Counted from the stretch's first letter, positions 1 to 12,138 are shown. The stretch: DNA of 12,138 bases from Promethearchaeota archaeon (GCA_016839765.1 JAEOTP010000054.1:1-12138); one strand, 5' to 3'. Notes: a model not told the origin generated them from the sequence alone. Translations and numbers: made by a program.

Positions 1-2
1 TA

Positions 3-497
3 TACTATGACCTTGATGGGATATCTTTTGTTGGTTGTGGTGGCGGAGGATGGGATGGAGTTAAAGGTGAAGCAAAATTAGATGCGGTAGATAAAGTTAA
101 ATTTATTGAAAATTATGAAAAAGTTTTTAATATTAAATCAAAAGATATTGCAGATATTTATGCATTTACAGAGGGACCAACTCTTTTTGGAGGACACTGG
201 TCTGAAAAGTACCAAGATTTTTTATTACATTGCCCTGATACTGCTAGGATTATAGTAAGAGATATAGAAAAGCTAGAACCTGTTAATGAGGGTATGGAAG
301 GCTTGTTAGAGGTAATAACACCATATGGTGTAAATGGTAGCATAAATCAAGCAGTTCTTGTTGATGATTTTGTAGAATTAATTTCAAAAAATAAATGTCC
401 AGAATGTGGGTATCAAGGGGCTACATTTAGAATTGTGGGAAGGTTAAAAAATGCCCAAGGTAAGAGCTGTTCTTCAATAATTGATTGGCTTCACTAA
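3..497 (+). CDS. LuxE-like acyl-protein synthetase (ANL/adenylate-forming fold), 5'-truncated at window edge
   Basis: The frame is open from base 3 to TAA at 495-497, so the 294..497 ORF-track entry starts at an internal Met. My translation: YYDLDGISFVGCGGGGWDGVKGE...IADIYAFTEGPTLFGG...LHCPDTARIIVRDIEKLEPVNEGMEGLLEVITPYG...VLVDD...CPECGYQGATFRIVGRLKNAQGKSCSSIIDWLH*. This follows the LuxE motif order: GGGW, D-x-Y-x-x-TE, H-x-P...IRD...LEP...GE-x-GL, C-x-(x)-CG...F-x-x-x-GR, and a terminal Cys. Confidence 0.85.
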   Translation, partial: YYDLDGISFVGCGGGGWDGVKGEAKLDAVDKVKFIENYEKVFNIKSKDIADIYAFTEGPTLFGGHWSEKYQDFLLHCPDTARIIVRDIEKLEPVNEGMEGLLEVITPYGVNGSINQAVLVDDFVELISKNKCPECGYQGATFRIVGRLKNAQGKSCSSIIDWLH

Positions 498-513
498 CTG
501 CTTTATTTAATTT

Positions 514-1476
514 TTACCTCTTATCCACTTTTTTTAGTAAGTAGATTAAATTATAATTTATTATACTGAAAATTATACTAAACTTATATAATTTGTAAAT
601 TATGTCTATTCTTCTCATAAGTCGAAAAAATAAAAAAATCAAAAAAGCTAGTGAGAAAGCATTTAATGATAAATAAAATATCATATTCAAAATTATAAAG
701 CCACAAATAAACAGTGCCAAAAGTAATACAAAAGGGAATGCAATTAACTGCAAATAATTCCAAATGGTTTTTCTATCATAAATTGATTCTGGTTTAAAGG
801 AAATATCCATGTTATGAACGGCTGCTATTTTTGAATATGATTTTCCATATTGTATATACTTTTTGATATTTTGAAGTGTAGTTCTTTTTCCATGATGAAT
901 TACCAGTCCCTTTGGTACATAAATTAGTCTAAATCCTTTCTTTATTGCCCTCCATGAAAATTCCAGATCTTCAATTCTATAATTTAAAAAGCCACCAGTA
1001 TGTGTCACTAATTCTTTTTTAAATAACATATTACTTGAATTAAGGAAATTAACGGTGGACTCTTTTTTTAGAACTGTTTCAATTTTTATAGATGGATTTA
1101 ATTTTCTTTCTGCTCTATCACAAAATTCAACTCTTCCTCCAACTATATCGTATCTATTCAAAAAAGGAACTAAATCTTTTAACCAATTTCTTGAGACAAA
1201 GCAATCAGAATCAGTTAAAGCAATAATGTCATTTTTCGCCTCGTTAATGCCAATATTTCGAGCTTCAGCTGATCCAACTGATTTTTCTAATACTATGGAT
1301 TTAATGGGATATTTTCTTAATAGATTTTTCGTATTATCTGTTGAACAATCATCAACAATTATTATTTCATAATTAGGATAGTTCAAATTAGATAGATTTT
1401 TAATTAAATTAGGTAAGAGACTGCCTCTGTTTTTTATAGGCACAATTATTGATACGGGTTGTAACACTGAACTCAT
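514..1476 (-). CDS. GT2 family (GT-A fold) glycosyltransferase with C-terminal transmembrane helices
   Basis: Motifs VSIIVPIKNR, IIIVDDCSTDNT, GSAEARNIG, DxD motif TDSDC, GGF...EDLEFSWR, YVPKGLVIHH and QYG. A hydrophobic C-terminal region suggests about 2-3 TM segments. Confidence 0.93.
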   Translation of the reverse strand: MSSVLQPVSIIVPIKNRGSLLPNLIKNLSNLNYPNYEIIIVDDCSTDNTKNLLRKYPIKSIVLEKSVGSAEARNIGINEAKNDIIALTDSDCFVSRNWLKDLVPFLNRYDIVGGRVEFCDRAERKLNPSIKIETVLKKESTVNFLNSSNMLFKKELVTHTGGFLNYRIEDLEFSWRAIKKGFRLIYVPKGLVIHHGKRTTLQNIKKYIQYGKSYSKIAAVHNMDISFKPESIYDRKTIWNYLQLIAFPFVLLLALFICGFIILNMIFYLSLNAFSLAFLIFLFFRLMRRIDIIYKLYKFSIIFSIINYNLIYLLKKVDKR

Positions 1477-1517
1477 TAATGTTTTTTAGTATTATTAATT
1501 ATTTTAATCTATTCTGA

Positions 1518-2570
1518 TTGAAGGGACTTGAAATATATATCAACAATATGAAAAATAAAATATTAAGGAAGTTGGGAATAAGTTATTTAAAAAGAATTCT
1601 CAGAGTAATAAACGGGCCAGTATTTATCAGCATATTTTTTACTCGAAAATGTAATTTTAATTGTTATTATTGCGCTACTTCAAAAAACATACAAAAAAAT
1701 GATATTTCATTAAAGCAATGGAAAGATATAATAAATCAAATTTATAATCAAGGATGTCGATTTATTACAATATATGGGGGGGAACCAACACTTCGGTCGG
1801 ACTTAGGCGAATTAATAAAGCATTGTATAGATTTAAATATTTTTACTCATGTAGTTACTAACGGCTCTCTATTAAATGAAGAGTTACTTGAGGAATTTGC
1901 ATCCTATGGATATTTCCTTTTAGGTATAAGTATTGATGGGTTTTCAGAAACTAATTTTAGTCCCAAGAAATATCATCCCGAATTAATCGAATTACTTCAT
2001 AAAATAAAAGAGAAACATCCTGACAATATAGATTATAGCATTCATATTATCCCTACCAAAGAGAATATAGAGGAGGTTGCTCCATTAATAAGAACCATCA
2101 ATTTAAAATTGGAGTGCCGGTTTTCAATAGATCCTGTACATTCATCAATGAATCCTGATGAACAATATCAGTATAGAAGTTATTGCCCAGATTTATTAAT
2201 AAAAAAGGAAGATATGGATCGAATAAGAAAAATGATTCAATATTTAAAGAGACAAGGGGTTCAATTCTTTTCTCCTAACATTTATTATTATTATATGAAT
2301 AAATGGTATCAAAAAAAATATTCTTGGAAATGTGATGCTGGAGATTTATATTATGCAATTGATAATGATGGAACTGTAATGCTATGCGAAGACGTTAGCA
2401 CACCTATTCACTTTAGCGATTTTATCAAATTATCTCATAGGAAGCGAGTTAAAACAATAAATAAATTTAAATTTGAATATTGTGATTGTTTTAAACCATG
2501 TTATTGGAATCCTACTAATTTTGTTAAGCACCCAATTAGAAATTTCAGATATCAAAATATATTAAAATAA
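1518..2570 (+). CDS. Radical SAM enzyme with C-terminal twitch/SPASM-like auxiliary Fe-S domain
   Basis: CxxxCxxC motif CNFNCYYC (1650-1673), GGEPTLR, VTNG and ISIDG. C-terminal CDAG...IDNDGTVMLC...CDCFKPC. The ORF track starts at TTG 1518; ATG at 1548 is an equally plausible start. Confidence 0.93.
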   Translation: MKGLEIYINNMKNKILRKLGISYLKRILRVINGPVFISIFFTRKCNFNCYYCATSKNIQKNDISLKQWKDIINQIYNQGCRFITIYGGEPTLRSDLGELIKHCIDLNIFTHVVTNGSLLNEELLEEFASYGYFLLGISIDGFSETNFSPKKYHPELIELLHKIKEKHPDNIDYSIHIIPTKENIEEVAPLIRTINLKLECRFSIDPVHSSMNPDEQYQYRSYCPDLLIKKEDMDRIRKMIQYLKRQGVQFFSPNIYYYYMNKWYQKKYSWKCDAGDLYYAIDNDGTVMLCEDVSTPIHFSDFIKLSHRKRVKTINKFKFEYCDCFKPCYWNPTNFVKHPIRNFRYQNILK

Positions 2571-2591
2571 ATGTTTTTAATGAATAATTAA

Positions 2592-3374
2592 ATGCCATTT
2601 ATTACGATAAATCAACTGAAAATTTTCTTTTACGAAAATACAGTAGCAGGCGCACCTTTAGTATTCATTCATGGATGGCTAGGAAGCTCAAGGGAATGGA
2701 TTCATCAATTATGTTATTTTAATTTTAAAGAACATATTACCATTCTAGATTTACCTGGATTTGGAAAATCCGATAAACCAAAGGCAAAGTACTCTATTGA
2801 ATTTTTTACTAAACAGGTATTAAATTTTCTTAAATTACTTGGATATAATGAAGCCATTCTTATAGGGCATTCTTTAGGAGGAATGATTGCATTAAATATA
2901 ACTATTCAGAATCCAAAATTAGTGAAAAAATTAATCTTAATTAGTTCTAGCGCTGCAATTTCTCAATCACTTAAAGATAAAATAAAGTTATTTTGGGTGA
3001 ATTTGATTTTCAAATTAATTTATAAAAAATTCTTGAAAAATATTGTTAAACAAATTCTTTCACCTAAATTTAAAAATCGAGAATTAAAAAAACTCTATAC
3101 AATTGCATTAAAAATCCCAAAGTCAATAGTTTTAAGGACATTTAAAAATATGACCTCCAAATTTAATATACATAATCAACTATCTCAGATTTCTCAACCA
3201 ACCCTAATTATTTATGGAAATGAAGATAAAGTAATTTCTGACTCAATGATTAATGAGTTAGGTAATTTAATACCCAATTCAGAAATATTTAGCATTGAAA
3301 ATAGCTCACATAGGGTAATGGTTGACAATTATGAAAAAGTTAATAAAATTATTGATGAGTTTATTAAAAAATAA
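2592..3374 (+). CDS. Alpha/beta-fold hydrolase (esterase/thioesterase/lipase-like)
   Basis: Oxyanion motif FIHGW, DLPGFGKSD, nucleophile elbow GHSLGG, acid in PTLIIYGNEDKV and His in SSHRV. This gives an intact Ser-Asp-His triad. Confidence 0.93.
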   Translation: MPFITINQLKIFFYENTVAGAPLVFIHGWLGSSREWIHQLCYFNFKEHITILDLPGFGKSDKPKAKYSIEFFTKQVLNFLKLLGYNEAILIGHSLGGMIALNITIQNPKLVKKLILISSSAAISQSLKDKIKLFWVNLIFKLIYKKFLKNIVKQILSPKFKNRELKKLYTIALKIPKSIVLRTFKNMTSKFNIHNQLSQISQPTLIIYGNEDKVISDSMINELGNLIPNSEIFSIENSSHRVMVDNYEKVNKIIDEFIKK

Positions 3375-3375
3375 A

Positions 3376-4461
3376 TTAATACTTCTTATCTACCTCTCCT
3401 TTTTCATATTCATTTAATTGCCGGATAACTTTAGCAGGAACACCATATGCTATAGAATATGGGGGGATATCCTCCGTTACTACTGAACCTGCTCCAATTA
3501 TCGATCCTTTACCGATTGTAACCCCTGGTAATAGAATTGAATATGCTCCTATTCTTGCATTTTTACACACTTTAATAGGTCCAAAGCTGAATGTTCCATG
3601 TTTTATATGCATTGCATTATGAGTTAACATTTTTACTCCAATCCCGCAGCCGCTCCCTTCTTCAAATTCAATTAAATCAGGCAAGAGTGGATCAGGTGCT
3701 GCTTTTTGAGAAATATGGCAATTTTTTCCTATTTTCATTCCTGTAAAACGAAATAATTTGTTTCTGGCTCGTGGCCATCCAATTAAATATGTAATAATCA
3801 ACGATATTACATGGTTAAAGGCACCTTTCACAAACCAGGAAATAGAAAAGCCCTTACTCTGAAGATACTTTGCAATAATTAACATTGGTATAGGAGTAAA
3901 AATATGTTCCTCGGTGTCAATATTAATATATGTTATTTTTCCTTTTACTTGAACTTCAAATTCGGGTTTATTATGCTTCCATACTTTTCTCGCTTTTACT
4001 AAATCCTTAAAAAAAATAACAAAATCTATATTTACTAGAAATAGAACTAAGCTCAATGCGAAATTTATTGGCAAAAAAAGTATAAATAACATTAATCTTG
4101 TATTAAGTGCTAAATCTTGATTAAATAAGACACTAAAATATGTAAAATAAGATGCTATGAAAGTAATTGCTACAAATCCTAATAGACTAAAAATATATAT
4201 TATTGAACCAGTTAATTGTTTAGATTTTGCTAAATTATACCCTAAGACATATAATACAAGTAAAAATGTAAAAGTGATAAAAATTCCGCCATAAATATAA
4301 GTATTATATTCATTGAAAATTAATGATAACCAAGGTACTATGTATTCATATATTGTACTTATCCAAGGAATTGAAATAAATAATCGATTGATTACAAATA
4401 AAATAAGCACTATAGAACTTACAATTAAAAAAATAAATGGAAGTACAAATCCTTTTTTCAT
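3376..4461 (-). CDS. Hexapeptide-repeat (left-handed beta-helix) acyltransferase fused to an N-terminal multi-TM domain
   Basis: The C-terminal half reads GMKIGKNCHI...MLTHN...GPIKVCKNARIGAYSILLPGVTIGKGSIIGAGSVVTEDIPPYSIAYGVPAKVIR, a classic LbH acetyltransferase. The first ~150 aa contain about four hydrophobic helices. Confidence 0.9.
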   Translation of the reverse strand: MKKGFVLPFIFLIVSSIVLILFVINRLFISIPWISTIYEYIVPWLSLIFNEYNTYIYGGIFITFTFLLVLYVLGYNLAKSKQLTGSIIYIFSLLGFVAITFIASYFTYFSVLFNQDLALNTRLMLFILFLPINFALSLVLFLVNIDFVIFFKDLVKARKVWKHNKPEFEVQVKGKITYINIDTEEHIFTPIPMLIIAKYLQSKGFSISWFVKGAFNHVISLIITYLIGWPRARNKLFRFTGMKIGKNCHISQKAAPDPLLPDLIEFEEGSGCGIGVKMLTHNAMHIKHGTFSFGPIKVCKNARIGAYSILLPGVTIGKGSIIGAGSVVTEDIPPYSIAYGVPAKVIRQLNEYEKGEVDKKY

Positions 4462-4560
4462 TTTATTTCAATTATTACCTTTTAAAATACTAAAAAATCA
4501 TATATTAATAATAAATGAATGATTTAGAATATAATAATCATTCTGCTTACAAAAAGTAAA

Positions 4561-5328
4561 ATGAAAGCATTTAATATAAAGCATAAACCTAAAATTTCAG
4601 TTATTATCCCCACATATAATGAGGAAGCTAATATAGAGGAAACACTAATAGCAATTAAGAAACAAATATGCGATTTTTCTTATGAGATTGTTGTAGTGGA
4701 TGGACAAAGCACCGATAAAACCATGGATATAGCTAAAAAATTTGCGAACGTATATATATCGCCACAGAAAGGTAAAGCTTATCAATTAAATTATGCTGCT
4801 CCAAAAACATCGGGAGATATACTTTTATTTTTAGATGCAGATACATTGATGGACCCCTTTTTCTTACAAAAAGTTTATAAAATTTTTCAAAGGAAAAAGA
4901 ATCTTTTTGCCTGCAGTGCTAGAATTCAATATTATGATGGGATTGCATTTTCATTTAAAATTGGTTCTTTAGTATGCACTATAACAAAATATTTTTTTCA
5001 AAGCATTGCTGTTCATCTGTATTATTTCTTTAAAAGTTTATTTGGATATCCTGAACTTTCCGGAACAAACATGATTGTTAGACGAGATATATTCTTTAAA
5101 GCAGGTGGTTTTAAGCAACCACCACATTCCTTAGGAATTGACAAAGTTTTCTCAGATTCTATAATATATGTGACTAGAATATTAAAAAAAGGTAAAGTTA
5201 AGAGCTTAAATTTTGTTTCAGTATTAACTAGTGGAAGAAATTTAACAGTTAAACGTAGCTTAAAACGCATTAACCTATATTTTTCAAAGAAAGATGTTTA
5301 TTATGAATTAGCAAAAAAAATTGATTGA
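4561..5328 (+). CDS. GT2 family glycosyltransferase, no obvious TM anchor (resembles TIGR04283-type GTs)
   Basis: KISVIIPTYNEE, VVVDGQSTDKT, GKAYQLN, DxD motif LFLDADT, GGF and a late VLTSGR motif. Confidence 0.92.
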   Translation: MKAFNIKHKPKISVIIPTYNEEANIEETLIAIKKQICDFSYEIVVVDGQSTDKTMDIAKKFANVYISPQKGKAYQLNYAAPKTSGDILLFLDADTLMDPFFLQKVYKIFQRKKNLFACSARIQYYDGIAFSFKIGSLVCTITKYFFQSIAVHLYYFFKSLFGYPELSGTNMIVRRDIFFKAGGFKQPPHSLGIDKVFSDSIIYVTRILKKGKVKSLNFVSVLTSGRNLTVKRSLKRINLYFSKKDVYYELAKKID

Positions 5329-5355
5329 AAGTAAATCCTATATTTTGATTAATAA

Positions 5356-6810
5356 ATGAATACAATATTAATTTATCCCCAACTTGAATTTGCAAAGGCT
5401 CAAATTCCTACCCCGCCTTATTCTATTTTATTTATTGCTGATTACCTAATTAAAAGAAATGTAGATGTAGCACTCTTTGATTTACGATTTGATTCATACT
5501 CCCAAGTTATAAATGCTATTTCCAATAATGAGCCAAAATACATTGGCATCTCTGTAATGACTGGACCACAGATTTACCATGCATTGAAAGTGTGCGAAGA
5601 AATCAAAGAACAATTTAATAACGTTAAAATTGTATGGGGTGGTATCCACTCAACCATTCTTCCAACACAGACTCTTCAAAATAATTTAATTGATTTTGTA
5701 ATCAGGGGAGAAGGTGAAAAACCTTATTATGAACTTGTAAGTGGAAAAAATAAAAGTCAAATAAAGAGCCTTTCAATAAAAAAAGGTAGAAAAGTATATC
5801 ATAATCCTAATTCTGCTCTATTAAAAAGCATTGAAATAAATAAGTTGAGTATTCCTTGGGAGTTGATAAATCCAAAGCATTATATAAGAAATGGAAATTT
5901 CAACATGATTACTAGTCGTGGCTGTCCGTTTGGATGTGCTTTTTGTTATAATACCCTATTTCAAAATGTATGGAGAGGATGGACTGCCGAGAAATGCTTT
6001 GAGGAACTTGATAAATGCATAGATTTTGGTGCAAAAAAAATTAATTTCTATGATGATTATTTTTTCGCAAAATGGGAACGGATTAAAGCTCTTTTTAATT
6101 ACTTTAAAAAGAAAGACATCATATGGAAAGCAGAATTACGTGTTGATCACTTAAATTCTTCATTAGCTAAAGAAGCAAAAGAACATGGCTGTAATCAACT
6201 GTTTTTTGGGGTAGAATCTGGCTCTCAACGAGTATTGAATATCTTGAATAAAAAGATTTTAATAAAAGATATAATTAAAAGTGCTAGAATTACAAAAGAC
6301 GTAGGTCTTATTGCTGATTATAGTTGGATGATTGGTGTACCAGGTGAAACAAAAAATGATATAAAAAAAACCATATTTTTAGCAAAGAGAGTTAAAAAGA
6401 TCAACCCTGATTGCGAATTTTCAATAAAAGTACTCTTTCCATATCCTAAAACTCCAATTTATGATGAAGCTATAAAAATGGGATTTAAAGCTCCATTTAA
6501 TCTCCTTAGCTGGGCGAAAATTAGAAGAGAACGTGCACCAAGTTATTTAAAACACAAGAATCTCCTTGAAATGATTTCAATTACAAGTGCCATTGTGGGT
6601 AAGAAAGTTTTTGAACAAAATAATATCCCAATTCTTAAGTTAATTAGAGCTATAGCAGAATTTAGGTGGAAAAATGAGATTTTCATCGTTGGATTCGAAA
6701 ACTTTTACTTTAAAATTTTTAGAAATATAGTTGAGAAAAGAATCGTTAAAAAAGATACTCTTGAATATGACCCATTTTCACATAAAATAGTGTTAAAAAG
6801 GGAAGAATAA
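5356..6810 (+). CDS. Cobalamin (B12)-binding radical SAM enzyme (BchE/HpnJ/HpnP/class B methylase superfamily)
   Basis: N-terminal B12-binding Rossmann domain (LIYP...PPYSILFIADYL...IGISVMTG...IVWGGIHST...DFVIRGEGE). Then TSRGCPFGCAFC (Cys codons 5923-5946), FYDDYF, RVD, GVESGSQRVL and MIGVPGET. Confidence 0.94.
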   Translation: MNTILIYPQLEFAKAQIPTPPYSILFIADYLIKRNVDVALFDLRFDSYSQVINAISNNEPKYIGISVMTGPQIYHALKVCEEIKEQFNNVKIVWGGIHSTILPTQTLQNNLIDFVIRGEGEKPYYELVSGKNKSQIKSLSIKKGRKVYHNPNSALLKSIEINKLSIPWELINPKHYIRNGNFNMITSRGCPFGCAFCYNTLFQNVWRGWTAEKCFEELDKCIDFGAKKINFYDDYFFAKWERIKALFNYFKKKDIIWKAELRVDHLNSSLAKEAKEHGCNQLFFGVESGSQRVLNILNKKILIKDIIKSARITKDVGLIADYSWMIGVPGETKNDIKKTIFLAKRVKKINPDCEFSIKVLFPYPKTPIYDEAIKMGFKAPFNLLSWAKIRRERAPSYLKHKNLLEMISITSAIVGKKVFEQNNIPILKLIRAIAEFRWKNEIFIVGFENFYFKIFRNIVEKRIVKKDTLEYDPFSHKIVLKREE

Positions 6811-6877
6811 AGCTTGACTTCTACAAATCTTTCAAAATAGTAGCCTAGAATAAAATCCTATCAGAAAAATTACGTAT

Positions 6878-6920
6878 AAAAAAAACAAGAAAGAAAAAAA
6901 GTGAAGAGATTTTAATCTCT
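6878..6920 (-). terminator. Putative intrinsic terminator of the 6926..7408 gene
   Basis: On the minus strand, just after the TAA: a 6-bp stem AGAGAT/ATCTCT with a 4-nt loop (6905-6920), then a ~23-nt U-rich pyrimidine tract (6878-6900). Confidence 0.6.
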
Positions 6921-6925
6921 AAAAT

Positions 6926-7408
6926 TTAAATTCTTGAGTCGCTCGTCGAAGGAATTGTTTCTACTCTATTACGGTTATAGATTTCAGCGAAAATATTAAA
7001 GAAATCTGCCTGTCTTTGTCTAAAATGAGGCTTTGGCTCATTCTTATTTTGCTGTAATATTAGTTTCCATTTCTTTTGTTTGGGATTACCTTTACCATCA
7101 ATTATTAACGCACTGTCTTTTCGCTTATTTACCCATAATATTATGACGCCAGGTTTTTGTAGCTGAATATTATTTACATCGTGCCATCTTACCCATTTAC
7201 TTTTTCCCATAGAATACATTGAACCTCTCATATACGTAACCTGTATCCTCCAGGCAAATCCGTTGTCAGTCACTACTAGAAAACCATTCTCTTTACTAAG
7301 CCTACATTTTGAAGTAATTATCGGGTCGCCTACATCGTCTTGACCCAACATTTTTTCATATTTCTCAACTCTATCGGGAGAAACCTCCCAACCTTCCATT
7401 ATTGGCAT
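6926..7408 (-). CDS. Hypothetical protein, possibly PH-like/GRAM-like fold
   Basis: 160-aa ORF with SD-like AGTGA just upstream of the ATG and a terminator downstream. The pattern ENGFLVVTDNGFAWR...WVRWHDVNNIQ...GVIILWV followed by a C-terminal amphipathic helix (QADFFNIFAEIYNRN) resembles PH-like domains. The fold call is tentative. Confidence 0.8.
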   Translation of the reverse strand: MPIMEGWEVSPDRVEKYEKMLGQDDVGDPIITSKCRLSKENGFLVVTDNGFAWRIQVTYMRGSMYSMGKSKWVRWHDVNNIQLQKPGVIILWVNKRKDSALIIDGKGNPKQKKWKLILQQNKNEPKPHFRQRQADFFNIFAEIYNRNRVETIPSTSDSRI

Positions 7409-7586
7409 TTTAATTCACTTTAAGTTTTTAATTTCTGGATTTCATTTATTATTATTATAGCATAATTTTTATAAATAATTTCCTAGAAAATTTAATTATA
7501 AATCCAGAGTTTATAAATAAAATAAGCATTAAACTCAAATTTATGTTTAATATTTCAAATCTAAAATTATAAATTTTACGTATATA

Positions 7587-8351
7587 ATGAAAATTATATT
7601 GACCTTTGATATTGAAAGGGATATTCCAAATAATTTAAATACTTTTTTTGGGGTAAAAGTTGGCCTATTGAAAATATTAAAACTTTTAGATAATTTTAAT
7701 GTTAATGCAACTTTTTTTTGTACGGGACATGTTGCTAAATATCTACCAGATTACATAAGATTAGTTGAGCGTAAGGGTCATGAGATTGCTTGTCATGGTT
7801 TAAGTCATGAACGATTAAACCATTTAGGGTTTAAAAAATGCCAAGCAATAATTTCTCAAAATAAAAAAATAATAGAGAATACATGCCAAAATTCAGAAAT
7901 TTTTGGGTTTCGTTCACCATATTTAAATCCTCCAAAATACTTATTCAAGGTATTAAATAATTTGGGATTTAAATATGATTCATCAATTAAATCTCAGAAA
8001 AATGTGAAATTTTATCAAAAATATAATGATGGAATTCAAGAATATCCTCCCTCGAATTATAATATATCTCTTAGAATTTGTATAAATTATTCTTTTTTAT
8101 TAAAATTGATGTTTAAAAAGGAAGTAATTATCTTATGTTTTCATCCTATAGAATGGATAAATATGAAAGAAGTGTTACGCAATCAAATGAGCGGTTTTAA
8201 TTTATTTCTCAATCTTTCTTATAGACCAGATCGTTGGTTAAATACAGGAGATAAATTTAACACCAAAATTCATAATTTTATCAAAGACTCTCTTTCTAAA
8301 AAAGCCGAGTTTCTCACTTTAAAACAATTATATTTTCAAGACAGTCGTTAG
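7587..8351 (+). CDS. Polysaccharide deacetylase family protein (carbohydrate esterase 4, NodB-homology)
   Basis: Motif 1 LTFDIE, ATFFCTG, metal-binding motif 2 GHEIACHGLSH, motif 3 GFRSPY, YDSS and motif 5 LCFHPIE. No signal peptide is evident. Confidence 0.92.
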   Translation: MKIILTFDIERDIPNNLNTFFGVKVGLLKILKLLDNFNVNATFFCTGHVAKYLPDYIRLVERKGHEIACHGLSHERLNHLGFKKCQAIISQNKKIIENTCQNSEIFGFRSPYLNPPKYLFKVLNNLGFKYDSSIKSQKNVKFYQKYNDGIQEYPPSNYNISLRICINYSFLLKLMFKKEVIILCFHPIEWINMKEVLRNQMSGFNLFLNLSYRPDRWLNTGDKFNTKIHNFIKDSLSKKAEFLTLKQLYFQDSR

Positions 8352-8372
8352 GATCTAATTTTAAAAAAATAT

Positions 8373-9653
8373 ATGAGAAACGTATTATTTCTTCTTTTAA
8401 TAATAATAAGGTATAAAATTGTGCCAATCTCGAAGAAATTTTCTAAACATCAAACCAAAAATTCAATAATTAATTATCGCGTTTGGCCATTATTTTTGCT
8501 TTCGTTTATTCGCTTATTTTATGTTTCGATTTTTGAACGGGCTCTTCAAAACTATCTATATAGAGTCATACTTATTAGTGAGAGTACTTTAGGGATTATA
8601 TCTTCTGCTGGAGCTATAGCATATATTTTTGCCCCCATTTTGGGGCAATTTATTACCTCAAAGTTGGGAATTAGGAATTCTCTCATACTATCTTGTGTGC
8701 TTACTCCAATACTAACTGGAGCTCAAATAATATATTTTGAGCCTTGGTTTTTAATCATGTGTCGTATATTTTCAGGAATATCATTGGGAGTTTTTTGGCC
8801 AAATTGCTTTAATTTATTAAGTAAATGGCAAAAGGTAAGTAATATAGAGAAATCTAATAAAAATTTTAAACATTTTAACTTTTCATGGAATTCTGGATTT
8901 CTTCTCGGGCTTCTTGTAGGTTATACCTGGGCATTTGTTTGGAATGATTATTTTGCCATGATCGCTTCTTGTGGTATGTCATTTCTATTAATCCCGGTTA
9001 GTTTATTCTTAAAAAAAGAATTAAGTGTGTCTTTATCAAATCAAGAGCCACATATTCAAGTAGATTCTACGATTTCTCATATAGAAATAAAAGAGAATAC
9101 CCCAATGATTATTTATCCAATACTATTCTCATGGATTGGAATAATTTTTTTGGCAATCGCTAAAGCAAATTTTCTCTTTTCATATCAAATTTTTTTAAAA
9201 GCTTCAGCAATTACCTCTACTCCAACTTATCTCGTACAATTTGGGATTCAAGCAACTCAACTAATAGGGTTAACTTGGATCAATTCCATGAAAATAAATA
9301 ATAGAAAGATGTCTGTATTAATAAGTATAATTTTTGTGATTTTATTTTCAAGCTTGATTCTCTTTTTTGACGATATTTGGTTTATATCAATAATAAGTGT
9401 GTCAACTGGTCTTTTTTTCGGATTAATTCATGGAACATCGATGAAAATTATGCTTGAACATGGAACAGCAAAAAACACATCAAAATTCTCAACTATAAAT
9501 GAAATTTTAGTAGGAATTGGTTTTGGAGTAACACCTATTATCGCCGGATACGTTGCTGAAATAAATATTTATTTTATGTTTCTATTTCTTTCATTATTGG
9601 GGATTATAGTATTAATCTTTTTAATTTACCTTTCTAGAAATGTTAAAAAATAA
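8373..9653 (+). CDS. Major facilitator superfamily transporter
   Basis: About 12 hydrophobic segments in a 6+6 arrangement with a central hydrophilic loop. Motif A-like GQFITSKLGIRNS, TM4 RIFSGISLG and C-terminal GFGVTPIIAGYVAE. The true start may be the in-frame GTG at 8421. Confidence 0.9.
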   Translation: MRNVLFLLLIIIRYKIVPISKKFSKHQTKNSIINYRVWPLFLLSFIRLFYVSIFERALQNYLYRVILISESTLGIISSAGAIAYIFAPILGQFITSKLGIRNSLILSCVLTPILTGAQIIYFEPWFLIMCRIFSGISLGVFWPNCFNLLSKWQKVSNIEKSNKNFKHFNFSWNSGFLLGLLVGYTWAFVWNDYFAMIASCGMSFLLIPVSLFLKKELSVSLSNQEPHIQVDSTISHIEIKENTPMIIYPILFSWIGIIFLAIAKANFLFSYQIFLKASAITSTPTYLVQFGIQATQLIGLTWINSMKINNRKMSVLISIIFVILFSSLILFFDDIWFISIISVSTGLFFGLIHGTSMKIMLEHGTAKNTSKFSTINEILVGIGFGVTPIIAGYVAEINIYFMFLFLSLLGIIVLIFLIYLSRNVKK

Positions 9654-9762: not shown

Positions 9763-10617
9763 ATGCAAATCCTATTAGTTCTCTCCTATTTTGATCGCAA
9801 AATGGGCCCTTCAGTTTTTTATTCTTATCCGGAACATAAATTTAAGGAAGAAAATGCTACGGTTATAGCAAACTTAATGGATCAGGTCATATCAGAAGGT
9901 TTTTTTACTCACTCCTTTAACTCATCTTACACCCTCAATTATTATTTCGAAATTGATTCAATGTGGGCTCGTGGAAATAAAGAGTTCCTTATGATTTCAA
10001 TAATTTTTAATCAGCCACCATCTCTTGAAACTGAAAAAGCAGTTTTCAATCTCTGTATTGAATTTTCAGAATGGTTAAAAACTAAAAAGGAAATCTTTAC
10101 AGCATTTTATGAAGGAACAAACTTATACAATCAAAATTATAAAAAAGAAATTAAATATAGCATACAATTAGTTAAAAGCTGGATAAAAGAGTTTAATTCG
10201 GCGGTTCTCGATGAAATTCAGGGTAAACTTGAAGAAGAAAATATAATTTCATTATTAGAAAGAAATGATGTAATACAAGTATTAGAACTTTTAGGCATTA
10301 AACCTGTACCAATTAAAGATTTAAAAGTTTGGTATAATGAAAAATTTCCTCACAATAACTTCCACAAAATGCTAACCACTCTTTTTAGAAATCATTTAGT
10401 TTTTATACCAGATATTGGTGGAAGAAGAAAGCCCCCCTTTAAAATACAAATTAAAAAGGAAGTTAAAACAATCGCCGGTTTAATAAGTCTAAAGAATAGA
10501 TTAATCAAAAAATACTTAAAGAATAATCAAATTAAGGATAATAATATTTTAGAAAGAAATACTAAAGAGTTTCATAAGTTTCTGGAAAAAGTTTTTTCTG
10601 AAAAACAAGTTATTTGA
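9763..10617 (+). CDS. Hypothetical protein with N-terminal uDENN/longin-like domain and possible C-terminal winged-helix-like region
   Basis: The N-terminus LVLSYFDRKMGPSVFYSYP fits the F-D-x3-GP-x6-P pattern of uDENN/NPR2-type longins. It is followed by FFTHSF...NYYFEIDS..ARGNKEFLMISII and a long helix, a pattern I associate with Lokiarchaeal proteins. Confidence 0.75.
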   Translation: MQILLVLSYFDRKMGPSVFYSYPEHKFKEENATVIANLMDQVISEGFFTHSFNSSYTLNYYFEIDSMWARGNKEFLMISIIFNQPPSLETEKAVFNLCIEFSEWLKTKKEIFTAFYEGTNLYNQNYKKEIKYSIQLVKSWIKEFNSAVLDEIQGKLEEENIISLLERNDVIQVLELLGIKPVPIKDLKVWYNEKFPHNNFHKMLTTLFRNHLVFIPDIGGRRKPPFKIQIKKEVKTIAGLISLKNRLIKKYLKNNQIKDNNILERNTKEFHKFLEKVFSEKQVI

Positions 10618-10642
10618 TATTAAAACCTCTGAGCAGAAATAT

Positions 10643-11038
10643 TTATAATTTTTCTTTCTCTTTCAACTGTTTTTCTAATAGCTTAATCTCTCTGTTGATG
10701 TCTTTCATCTTACTATCCTTTTCTTTAGTAATTGACTTAAATTCTTTCTTTAAAATTCCCGTTTTATCTTTCTTCAATGAATTACATTGCTTATTTAAGT
10801 CGCTAATAAATGAATTTAACTTTTTCTTCTCTAGGTTCAATTTATCAATATTTTTATTAACTTCATCTAATCTATTTTGTCCAACTTGGAGCTTTGATTC
10901 ATACTCACTAATTTTATTATTAAATTCTTCATCAATTTTATTTTTTATATAAGTCTCTTTCTTTTTTGCTCCCTCTTCTACTTCCATTATTTTACTTGCT
11001 ATTTTGTTAATTTGATCCCTAAGCTCTTCTTCTGACAT
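10643..11038 (-). CDS. Small, highly charged coiled-coil protein of unknown function
   Basis: 131 aa, K/E-rich, with no Pro and heptad-spaced I/L throughout. It is convergent with 9763..10617, 25 bp apart. Confidence 0.8.
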   Translation of the reverse strand: MSEEELRDQINKIASKIMEVEEGAKKKETYIKNKIDEEFNNKISEYESKLQVGQNRLDEVNKNIDKLNLEKKKLNSFISDLNKQCNSLKKDKTGILKKEFKSITKEKDSKMKDINREIKLLEKQLKEKEKL

Positions 11039-11057
11039 TTCAATTTCTTGCTTTTAT

Positions 11058-11077
11058 AGTTTATTTCAAAATAAACT
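11058..11077. promoter_or_regulatory. Palindrome AGTTTATTT-CA-AAATAAACT, candidate operator in a divergent intergenic region
   Basis: Perfect 9-bp inverted arms with a 2-bp spacer, about 20 bp upstream of the start codon of the minus-strand coiled-coil gene. Confidence 0.35.
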
Positions 11078-11245
11078 TGAATAAATGAATAATATATATT
11101 TTTATTTTAAGTCTTTATATTTTAAGTTAGTTTTTGAACATTAACTTTCGTTACAACATCACAGATTCTAGGAGATTATGATAATTTTATAAATTTCAAA
11201 TTAATCTTATGTTTAATGGGGATATTAATTTAATTTGAAATTTTT

Positions 11246-12138
11246 ATGGTATATTTTCAGGTTAGTAGAGTAGGATTTAACTGCGGAATAGATAAAAAGG
11301 AATGTAATAGATATCCAGAAGGCTGCACAGAATGCATTAAAGCTCAATTTGTTAAATTTGGGTGTGATGTTAGTCAAAATATAAGAATTAACGTAATTGA
11401 TTCTGAAGAAAAAAGAAATCAGATGTTTCGAGATTTAATCTGGCAAAAATTTTTGGATGTTTTAAATATTAAACATATTTTATTGATGACTAAAGATACC
11501 GGATTACCTATAGTGGATTATCCGATTTCCGGAGCAGGAGTAGATGTTGGATTTTTAACAGGGTTCATTCAAGCAAATATCACTTTTTCAGAATCGGGAA
11601 AAGCCTCAAAAGGTAGCACTACTCAAGTATTAAATCACAAATTTTATGAATTCCAATATGAGACATTTAATATTCTGTTAAAAAACGACAATTTGATTAG
11701 ATTATGTTTAGTATTAGATAGAAAAGCTTCTAACAGTCTAAAAAATCTGGTAAGTGAATTTTTAACTGATTATGAAACAAGATATCGAGAGAAACTTGAA
11801 AAGCTTATAAAAATAGGCGTACTTGAATTTGACAATACGATTGATTTTATCATTGACACTTTTAATATAAAATTAGTATTCCCAATGGTTCTTACTCATA
11901 CATTTTTACCTAATGTTTTAGAAACGATTAATAAAAATCATATTCAAAAAGCTATAGTAGATTTTGCAAAAGAAATTTTAGCTTCGAGACAAGTCTTTTT
12001 TATCAACAATCTCCTGAATAAAGTGCAAAAAATAGTCGACATTGACGCAAGTATTATACTTTATGAAATTTATCAGCTTTTAATAAGTAAGGTAATTATT
12101 CCAACAAATATTGAAACTGCCTCAAATGAAATTAAAAA
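11246..12138 (+). CDS. Hypothetical protein: N-terminal Cys cluster + longin-like domain + possible winged helix; 3'-truncated at window edge
   Basis: Absent from the ORF track. ATG at 11246, with an in-frame TAA at 11231-11233 upstream, and open to the end of the window. Translation: MVYFQVSRVGFNCGIDKKECNRYPEGCTECIKAQF...NIKHILLMTKDTGLPIVDY...DVGFLTGFIQANITFSE...FYEFQYETFNILLKNDNLIRLCLVLDRKASNSLKNLVSEFLTDYETRY...ILYEIYQLLISKVIIP... Confidence 0.85.
   Translation, partial: MVYFQVSRVGFNCGIDKKECNRYPEGCTECIKAQFVKFGCDVSQNIRINVIDSEEKRNQMFRDLIWQKFLDVLNIKHILLMTKDTGLPIVDYPISGAGVDVGFLTGFIQANITFSESGKASKGSTTQVLNHKFYEFQYETFNILLKNDNLIRLCLVLDRKASNSLKNLVSEFLTDYETRYREKLEKLIKIGVLEFDNTIDFIIDTFNIKLVFPMVLTHTFLPNVLETINKNHIQKAIVDFAKEILASRQVFFINNLLNKVQKIVDIDASIILYEIYQLLISKVIIPTNIETASNEIK

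Follow-up and report, generated by a model that had tools for sequence, protein, structure and literature searches.

A gene island of Asgard archaea and its proposed role in building a tailored glyco-phospholipid or short lipoglycan

What is made by a row of ten closely spaced genes in a Promethearchaeota archaeon, and do these genes belong together at all? They lie on GCA_016839765.1 JAEOTP010000054.1:1-12138, referred to here as the window, which is the complete 12,138-bp contig C32 (27.8% GC) of genome G000 (3.32 Mb in 96 contigs, 29.7% GC), neither end of which can be extended in this assembly. A prediction made from the sequence alone (the original prediction) had read positions 1-9653 as one unit for the synthesis and export of an acylated glycoconjugate or glycolipid tailored by radical S-adenosylmethionine (SAM) enzymes. 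Our comparison with related genomes shows that the window is the right-hand two thirds of a real, conserved, optional, modular and Asgard-restricted island that is found almost only in one family and whose enzymes are uncharacterised. We propose, at a probability of roughly 0.6, that the island encodes a pathway for an acylated, de-N-acetylated, radical-SAM-tailored glyco-phospholipid or short lipoglycan built on an archaeol-type lipid.

The window opens inside a gene. Its first coding region matches residues 273-436 of a 436-aa LuxE-like orthologue in the reference locus used for the full-length protein (L017, on contig C26 of genome G013), the 5′ part having been lost at the contig break. 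In relatives with the same gene order and 84-100% amino acid identity (G013, G019, and G116, the last being JAEOSD010000002), the 436-aa LuxE is preceded by genes for a CDP-alcohol phosphatidyltransferase of 312 aa (CDPOH) and a membrane GT2 glycosyltransferase of 450 aa (GT2-450), which bears out the earlier suggestion that a scaffold enzyme lies upstream of base 1. Across the 135 genomes of the window's Asgard (Lokiarchaeia-type) family that were used for phyletic profiles, GT2-450 always adjoins CDPOH (58 of the 60 CDPOH-positive genomes, both exceptions lying at contig ends), and CDPOH, GT2-450 and LuxE are contiguous in six genomes of two genera (G013, G015, G110, G012, G196 and G250). 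This triad is the core of the island. The end of LuxE and the genes to its right, with domains called by Pfam and NCBIfam models against curated cut-offs, are those of the window:

3-497, plus strand: LuxE-like adenylating enzyme of acyl-protein synthetase type, C-terminal 164 aa (PF04443, 64.1 bits, cut-off 24.9)
514-1476, minus strand: GT2 glycosyltransferase GT2a, 320 aa, with a C-terminal hydrophobic segment (PF00535, 112 bits)
1518-2570, plus strand: radical SAM enzyme (rSAM, g03), 350 aa (PF04055, 94 bits)
2592-3374, plus strand: alpha/beta-fold serine hydrolase or acyl-transferase, 260 aa (PF00561, 110.9 bits)
3376-4461, minus strand: left-handed beta-helix (LbH) acyltransferase, membrane-anchored by about four transmembrane (TM) segments (PF00132)
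4561-5328, plus strand: soluble GT2 glycosyltransferase GT2b, 255 aa (PF00535, 99.5 bits)
5356-6810, plus strand: B12-binding (class B) radical SAM enzyme (B12-rSAM), 484 aa (PF02310, 71.3 bits; PF04055, 73.2 bits)
6926-7408, minus strand: hyp160, PH-like protein of bacterial-PH/GRAM type, 160 aa (matched by structure; outside Pfam and NCBIfam families)
7587-8351, plus strand: CE4 (NodB-type) polysaccharide deacetylase, 254 aa (PF01522, 66.2 bits, cut-off 23.1)
8373-9653, plus strand: MFS transporter, 21 bp 3′ of CE4 (PF07690)

Pfam and the listing of open reading frames (ORFs) recover, each in its place, the nine domains that had been named from the sequence, and the tight spacing also holds, with successive gaps of 16, 41, 21, 1, 99, 27, 115, 178 and 21 bp, that is, 1-178 bp. 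None of the window proteins reaches an NCBIfam equivalog cut-off, hence none can be named beyond its superfamily, and sequence searches of structure databases gave generic anchors only (AprD4, viperin/SuiB-type radical SAM enzymes, a crenarchaeal minimal GT2 and LuxE).

The island genes stay together over a considerable range of divergence. They co-localise in about 28 related genomes at 50-97% amino acid identity, and they do so through rearrangement across at least eight genera, which contradicts the alternative that their orthologues are scattered. The series LbH-GT2b-B12rSAM-hyp160-CE4 recurs with inversions and insertions in five genera (27 family genomes, plus Hel and Hermod metagenome-assembled genomes, MAGs, around the B12-rSAM), and genus g1 and G250 (genus g12) have GT2a-rSAM-hydrolase in addition. 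Taken singly, the hydrolase is syntenic in eight g1 genomes and G250, GT2a is syntenic with rSAM g03 in genus g1 and G250, GT2b adjoins the LbH gene and/or the B12-rSAM in 16 genomes, and CE4 is syntenic in 15 genomes and also stands beside the triad in G196. Where B12-rSAM is missing, as in the g12 genomes G196 and G250, the tailoring genes directly abut the triad, the neighbours being LbH, GT2b, CE4, a sulfotransferase and Glf in the former and LbH, the hydrolase, rSAM, GT2a and a sulfotransferase in the latter. A compact form, CDPOH-GT2_450-B12rSAM-ZnR-hyp160, is found in G001, and extended loci add SCP2, sulfotransferase and Glf. In each of the 12 genomes that have the extended cluster and an assembled CDPOH pair, a single contig carries the two, which are between adjacent and 25 kb apart, and in the divergent Hel and Hermod loci the B12-rSAM is again paired with CDPOH-like and GT2-450-like genes.

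The distribution of the genes is as telling as their order. Among the family genomes CDPOH is present in 60, GT2-450 in 58, LbH in 57, the LuxE orthologue in 48 and B12-rSAM in 27, the first four of these occur together in 43 of the 135, and none is present in 72. Expressed as genomes with both genes, the first only, the second only and neither, CDPOH gives 58/2/0/75 with GT2-450, 55/5/2/73 with LbH, 46/14/2/73 with LuxE and 24/36/3/72 with B12-rSAM. The MFS transporter served as a control: its homologues are found in 79 of the 135 genomes, within the same two large genera, and are uncorrelated with the island (p = 0.86). The patchy pattern within genera, together with the contrast to this control, argues for an island that is gained and lost as a unit, the kinship of the genomes notwithstanding. 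That unrelated cell-envelope genes were merely juxtaposed by chance in one lineage is a weak and extremely improbable reading. The mixed strands, which imply at least seven transcription units in the window, and the MFS gene and the genes to its right, which are only lineage-specific neighbours, agree with it, but chance would have to contend with co-localisation that survives rearrangement in at least eight genera, with a near all-or-none co-occurrence that the MFS control does not share, and with the lack of partner genes around distant B12-rSAM paralogues.

The idea of a single pathway unit therefore stands on co-localisation and co-occurrence, while its boundaries and its transporter do not, and its product can be put forward only conditionally. 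Leftward the island continues past base 1, and on the right it is the CE4 gene (8351), not 9653, that forms the conserved boundary. An MFS exporter of the product had been part of the original prediction, and the comparative data are against it, given the island-independent distribution of MFS homologues and their location off the island: in every carrier checked, apart from the closest relatives, those of at least 85% identity sit on a different contig. The rest of the window (9763-12136) encodes g11 (284 aa) and g14 (297 aa here, 453 aa in L017), both of which lack a Pfam match and are syntenic with the island in the closest relatives only; g11 is grouped in a protein atlas with hypothetical clusters confined to Promethearchaeota, and paralogues of both occur elsewhere in G000 (C50 at 44%, C25 at 49%). 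Two ORFs overlap at 10614-11038, of which the minus-strand one encodes a 131-aa coiled-coil protein conserved at 77-93% and the 112-aa plus-strand one resembles a low-complexity antisense artefact.

How far does the island reach beyond the family? In a range sample of 301 genomes of the phylum, CDPOH orthologues are present in 33 of the 68 genomes of the window's family, in one sister-family genome and in none of the 232 others. An association beyond Asgard archaea was rejected, as 1.1 Mb around 71 B12-rSAM paralogues of about 30% identity (from DPANN, CPR and others) contained no CDPOH, LuxE, LbH or hyp160. Those close homologues of the B12-rSAM (61-96% identity, about 100 clusters) and of CDPOH (244 proteins, E ≤ 1e-10) that carry names are all Asgard, under the labels Loki, Promethearchaeota, Hod, Thor, Hel, Hermod, Heimdall and Odin; the 80 matches listed by a contig scan were mostly paralogues of about 30%. 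Since the named close homologues are Asgard-only, since orthologous clusters lie inside contigs of 100-460 kb in genomes of the same genus, and since Ras-family GTPase genes number in the dozens in G000 itself (with over 60 tblastn matches to the GTPase of L017), contamination of the bin is unlikely, and the Asgard host that had been thought probable is upheld. A Ras-family small GTPase gene also adjoins the left end of the island in G013 (L017:607-1122), and another precedes LuxE in the Hel MAG (L030).

What, then, might the core enzymes do? The CDPOH protein has a complete D-x2-DG-x2-AR...G-x3-D-x3-D motif, conserved in seven orthologues, and six predicted TM segments, and it scores 41-44 bits with PF01066 (cut-off 22). 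Its top models are archaetidylinositol-phosphate (AIP) synthase and PIP synthase, at 50-64 bits; in a comparison with the canonical paralogues the AIP-synthase model gave 60-72 bits, and the NF040950 cut-off of 180 is not reached. Because the same genomes each encode three canonical CDP-alcohol enzymes of 200-250 aa that score 135-164 bits with the AIP-synthase model, the sequence identifies the island CDPOH as an extra, divergent paralogue. An inositol-1-phosphate synthase is encoded in the host genome.

The LuxE-like enzyme is best judged from its full-length orthologue, which scores 76.6 bits with PF04443 (cut-off 24.9) and has an adenylation loop that reads SSSTTG and a PaaK-like N-terminal region. 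Scores of only 24.7-32.9 bits against the NCBIfam equivalog NF052244 (cut-off 550) place it, by sequence, in the LuxE family and not as an equivalog of the luminescence LuxE. A C-terminal GKSCSS, which is retained in the window fragment, aligns with QKGCSL of LuxE (PDB 7XC6), whose C-terminal Cys we take to be the acylation site. LuxC (PF05893) was not found in the carriers G000, G013, G015, G012 and G196, and control genomes gave matches. As the Cys is kept and LuxC was not found in these five carrier genomes, it is more likely that the enzyme donates an acyl group than that it feeds a reductase. Three assemblies break inside this gene, at residue 273 in G000 (window 1-3), at residue 197 in G022 (C156:2-592) and at three contig ends in G211 (including C132:1-771 and C89:1-648), which suggests strain-level heterogeneity or a repeat common to LuxE paralogues at 35-41%.

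The tailoring enzymes likewise stay below the NCBIfam equivalog cut-offs. The LbH acyltransferase is closest in NCBIfam to heptaprenylglyceryl-phosphate O-acetyltransferase (68.5 bits, cut-off 300), the hydrolase has a GHSLG nucleophile elbow, rSAM g03 combines a CX3CX2C motif at residue 45 with a C-terminal Cys cluster (272, 290, 322, 324 and 328) and reaches the cut-off of no NCBIfam model, and CE4 has TFDIE and HGLSH motifs and belongs to the CE4/NodB family by score threshold and metal-binding His pair. Catalytic motifs are intact in CDPOH, GT2-450, both radical SAM enzymes, the hydrolase, CE4 and LuxE, and three of the island enzymes are membrane proteins.

From the chemistry of these families we propose the following sequence of steps. 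CDPOH would join a CDP-activated lipid to a polyol or sugar phosphate, to which the membrane enzyme GT2-450 would add one or more sugars of the N-acetylhexosamine (HexNAc) type, and CE4 would then remove N-acetyl groups. The LuxE-like enzyme, operating without LuxC, would adenylate a carboxylic acid and probably carry it on its C-terminal Cys, and the LbH acyltransferase and/or the alpha/beta hydrolase would transfer acyl groups onto hydroxyls or the amine that has been exposed. GT2a and GT2b would extend the glycan, and rSAM, joined where present by B12-rSAM and hyp160, would carry out anaerobic C-H chemistry on the head group, which may be methylation, oxidation or a ring contraction like that of HpnJ/Cds. 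The sulfotransferase and Glf of some genomes would add sulfation and a supply of galactofuranose. Radical SAM chemistry would suit an anoxic way of life.

The properties of GT2-450 also allow a serious, if rather unlikely, alternative, a secreted or surface homopolysaccharide of poly-N-acetylglucosamine (PNAG), chitin-oligomer or cellulose type, in which GT2-450 would be processive, CE4 would partly deacetylate the polymer, LbH and LuxE would O- or N-acylate it as in ica/pga systems, and CDPOH would add a phospho-alcohol substituent or a primer. Besides TM helices at its flanks, GT2-450 shows a conserved QRTRW motif, its best NCBIfam score is with PgaC/IcaA (TIGR03937, 101.6 bits), NodC is also matched, and cellulose synthases are among its nearest solved relatives; likewise, CE4 scores best with the XrtA-system polysaccharide deacetylase and NodB. 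The Q-x-x-RW motif also occurs in non-processive lipid GT2/GT21 enzymes. Against a polymer, however, the PgaC (cut-off 422) and NodC scores are all far below cut-off, in each of the 58 genomes with both genes a CDPOH of phospholipid type immediately precedes GT2-450, the extended loci contain lipid-related neighbours such as SCP2, and no PgaA/PgaD, IcaD, BcsB-like or export partner was seen in the annotated loci, among whose genes Wzx/Wzy and AglB were also not seen.

Decoration of a dolichol-linked N-glycan or S-layer glycan, as in generic archaeal protein glycosylation, is weaker still and is improbable. Loci of agl type often have GT2 enzymes, a deacetylase and an acetyltransferase, and there are weak matches to AglJ, AglG and dolichyl-phosphate hexose transferase models, but these amount to 20-41 bits against cut-offs of 325-440, and neither AglB, a flippase nor a polyprenyl-phosphate glycosyltransferase was found among the annotated locus genes. 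We know of no agl cluster with an all-or-none optional distribution or with a core of CDP-alcohol transferase and LuxE, and the island has both. The generic S-layer pathway that might have accounted for the original prediction is thus not what the comparison supports.

The glyco-phospholipid or lipoglycan that we favour would in some lineages be modified by an additional module. B12-rSAM has CPFGCAFC at residue 190 and the domains of a class B enzyme, with predicted cobalamin binding. Its top NCBIfam match is HpnJ (TIGR03471), at 134.8 bits against a cut-off of 577.6 and only marginally ahead of ApyD (124.9), PhpK (122.2) and BchE (114.8). Of the 27 family genomes with orthologues, 24 are CDPOH-positive; of the other three, two have an assembly break at the cluster (G000 and G244) and one is only 79% complete (G370). 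With hyp160, B12-rSAM is an accessory module nested within the island carriers.

The protein hyp160 had been left outside the tailoring set, and it proves to be a conserved PH-like partner of the B12-rSAM. Its length is fixed and its termini (MP..GWEVS... and ...SDSR) are invariant across 45-96% identity, its gene is convergent with that of the B12-rSAM and adjoins it in 21 of the 27 genomes (in the remaining six, three contigs stop close to the gene), and it is present in 19 genomes of the 301-genome sample. An AlphaFold (AF2) model from nine orthologues, with a pLDDT of 84, predicts one helix, seven strands and a long C-terminal helix (H-7E-H). Foldseek matched PH or PH-like domains only, VIA-align gave Z-scores of 10.6 with a PH-like domain (4TYZ) and 10.1 with the PH-like/GRAM domain of Lam6, with nearly all of its 50 rows being PH-superfold domains, and the nearest named protein-atlas clusters are bPH_3, YokE-like and GRAM. 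By its model, hyp160 is a PH-like superfold protein. The fold, which in itself does not show binding, suggests that hyp160 may keep the lipid head group in place for the soluble radical SAM enzyme or offer it to that enzyme. An obligate partnership was rejected: of five hyp160 paralogues only two have a B12-rSAM paralogue within 3 kb, and only the orthologous pair holds. A second hyp160 paralogue of G000 (C15:23757-24236, 53% identity) lies 3 kb from a contig end, with no B12-rSAM visible beside it in the remainder of C15.

Several other features of the radical SAM genes were observed. Three or four tandem B12-rSAM paralogues, with 26-34% identity to that of the window, lie 3′ of CE4 in six or seven genomes (L021:13338-19872, L023:521-7027, L026:15784-20275 and L106), followed directly in G015 and G012 by the methylmalonyl-CoA mutase large subunit. 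Single in-frame stops occur in B12-rSAM as TGA in G166 (C51:58248-59690) and G163 (C44:35220-36659) and as TAA in G374 (C10:340942-342375), and as TAA in GT2-450 of G022 (C156:689-2038); they could be selenocysteine codons, introns, pseudogenes or sequencing errors. Three loci (L121, G015:C188:6000-21600; L122, G110:C8:1-11300; L123, G012:C27:163300-181000) share a block that separates the CDPOH triad from the tailoring genes and encodes an ABBA aromatic prenyltransferase (PF11468, 173 bits), one protein each of the U32 family and of SCP2-like type, two radical SAM enzymes of 390-470 aa, a B12-rSAM and two or three Zn-ribbon membrane proteins. The block could belong to the island as an additional part, or it could encode an anaerobic pathway of its own that leads to a prenylated aromatic or quinone-like compound.

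Radical SAM enzymes are equally a reason to consider a cluster for a ribosomally synthesised and post-translationally modified peptide (RiPP) or small molecule, in which rSAM and B12-rSAM would modify a peptide, the GT2 enzymes would glycosylate it and the MFS transporter would export it. Some versions of the island do contain, or lie near, several B12-rSAM paralogues, rSAMs whose C-terminal part has additional cysteines, small Zn-ribbon genes in tandem and an MFS gene, and GT2b has a faint match to the peptide S-glycosyltransferase SunS (26.7 bits in NCBIfam). Yet no precursor-like gene was found among the island loci, no protease or RRE domain was seen in those annotated, the MFS gene is not linked to the island, and the core consists of a phospholipid-type transferase and a membrane GT2. 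The recurrent small genes do not look like precursors, since one product is PH-like and folded, one is a soluble Zn-ribbon protein with multiple Cys and one is a membrane protein with three TM segments, and on these grounds we set aside a RiPP as a weak and very improbable product.

For the glyco-phospholipid or lipoglycan that we prefer, a number of points must be weighed on the other side. NCBIfam matches are all far below their curated cut-offs and thus point to no particular substrate. Membrane GT2 enzymes with QxxRW include the true polysaccharide synthases PgaC, NodC and BcsA, and GT2, CE4 and a membrane acyltransferase can by analogy also be read with the logic of a PNAG exopolysaccharide locus. 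The CDP-alcohol transferase family also has enzymes with soluble products, e.g., DIPP synthase. In G000 itself CDPOH and GT2-450 are not assembled, no LuxE N-terminus, CDPOH or GT2-450 having been found on its other contigs, and their link to the window rests on relatives at 84-100% identity. Finally, the 135 family genomes are kin, and Fisher p-values computed from them are descriptive and overstate independence.

A narrower version of the proposal, which we consider doubtful, is a lipid resembling a glycosylphosphatidylinositol (GPI) core or a phosphatidylinositol mannoside (PIM), that is, an acylated hexosaminyl-(inositol/polyol)-phospho-archaeol that is remodelled by radical SAM chemistry and read by a dedicated PH-like protein. 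If true, the closest relatives of eukaryotes would combine, as prokaryotes, a glycolipid of phosphoinositide type with a PH-fold protein that reads it. Hardly anything is known of the polar lipids of Asgard archaea, although any account of how the eukaryotic membrane arose turns on them, and the island, with its three-gene core and optional modules, is a testable candidate for a lineage-specific head group, whose direct assignment is made feasible by natural carriers and non-carriers within single genera. It also ties a LuxC-free branch of LuxE, a TM-anchored LbH acyltransferase and a PH-like protein, each of an uncharacterised class, to what would be one pathway. In agreement with the original prediction, which did not recognise the gene set as a characterised pathway, no description of the island was found in the literature on Asgard lipids and head groups, on Asgard biosynthetic gene clusters with radical SAM enzymes, or on calditol.

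Which known systems, then, does the island most resemble? With LuxCDE it shares the LuxE-family fold, the aligned C-terminal Cys motif and an alpha/beta hydrolase in the cluster, like LuxD, and it differs in LuxC, which was not found in the five carrier genomes, in the SSSTTG loop, the equivalog score and the length of 436 aa. With the PNAG loci icaADBC and pgaABCD it shares a QxxRW membrane GT2, a CE4 deacetylase and a membrane acyltransferase, whereas the PgaA/D or IcaD partners are replaced by CDPOH and the LuxE-like enzyme. Three further parallels, with the PIM operon, with GPI and with hopanoid synthesis, we treat as analogy and not as membership because every specific-family test failed on score. 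The mycobacterial and corynebacterial pgsA1-patA (Rv2611c)-pimA operon leads to an acylated glycosyl-phosphoinositide membrane lipid, the PI-mannoside, and like the island it clusters a CDP-alcohol phosphatidyltransferase gene with a glycosyltransferase and an acyltransferase. PimA, however, is a soluble GT4 and PatA is of LPLAT type, whereas the island has a QxxRW membrane GT2, a TM-anchored LbH acyltransferase, a LuxE-type enzyme, CE4 and radical SAM steps.

The early steps of GPI synthesis are catalysed by PIG-A, PIG-L and PIG-W, and Methanosarcina has a glucosaminyl-archaetidylinositol. The order proposed for the island would be the same, with HexNAc placed on a phospho-polyol lipid, then de-N-acetylation, then acylation, but through GT2 instead of GT4, CE4 instead of an LmbE-type enzyme and LbH/LuxE instead of PIG-W, so that the enzyme families differ entirely. 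In the hopanoid route, HpnI (a GT2) adds GlcNAc to a lipid polyol, HpnK deacetylates it and HpnJ (a B12 radical SAM enzyme) remodels the sugar ring, and the calditol synthase Cds offers a further parallel (PMC13459092). The island lipid would not be a hopanoid, HpnI scores 25.7 bits (cut-off 310) and HpnJ is likewise far short of its cut-off, and B12-rSAM is dispensable, with 36 carriers lacking it. The logic of the two systems would nevertheless be the same, namely a membrane GT2, a deacetylase and then a radical SAM enzyme, with HpnJ itself the top NCBIfam match of the B12-rSAM in the window.

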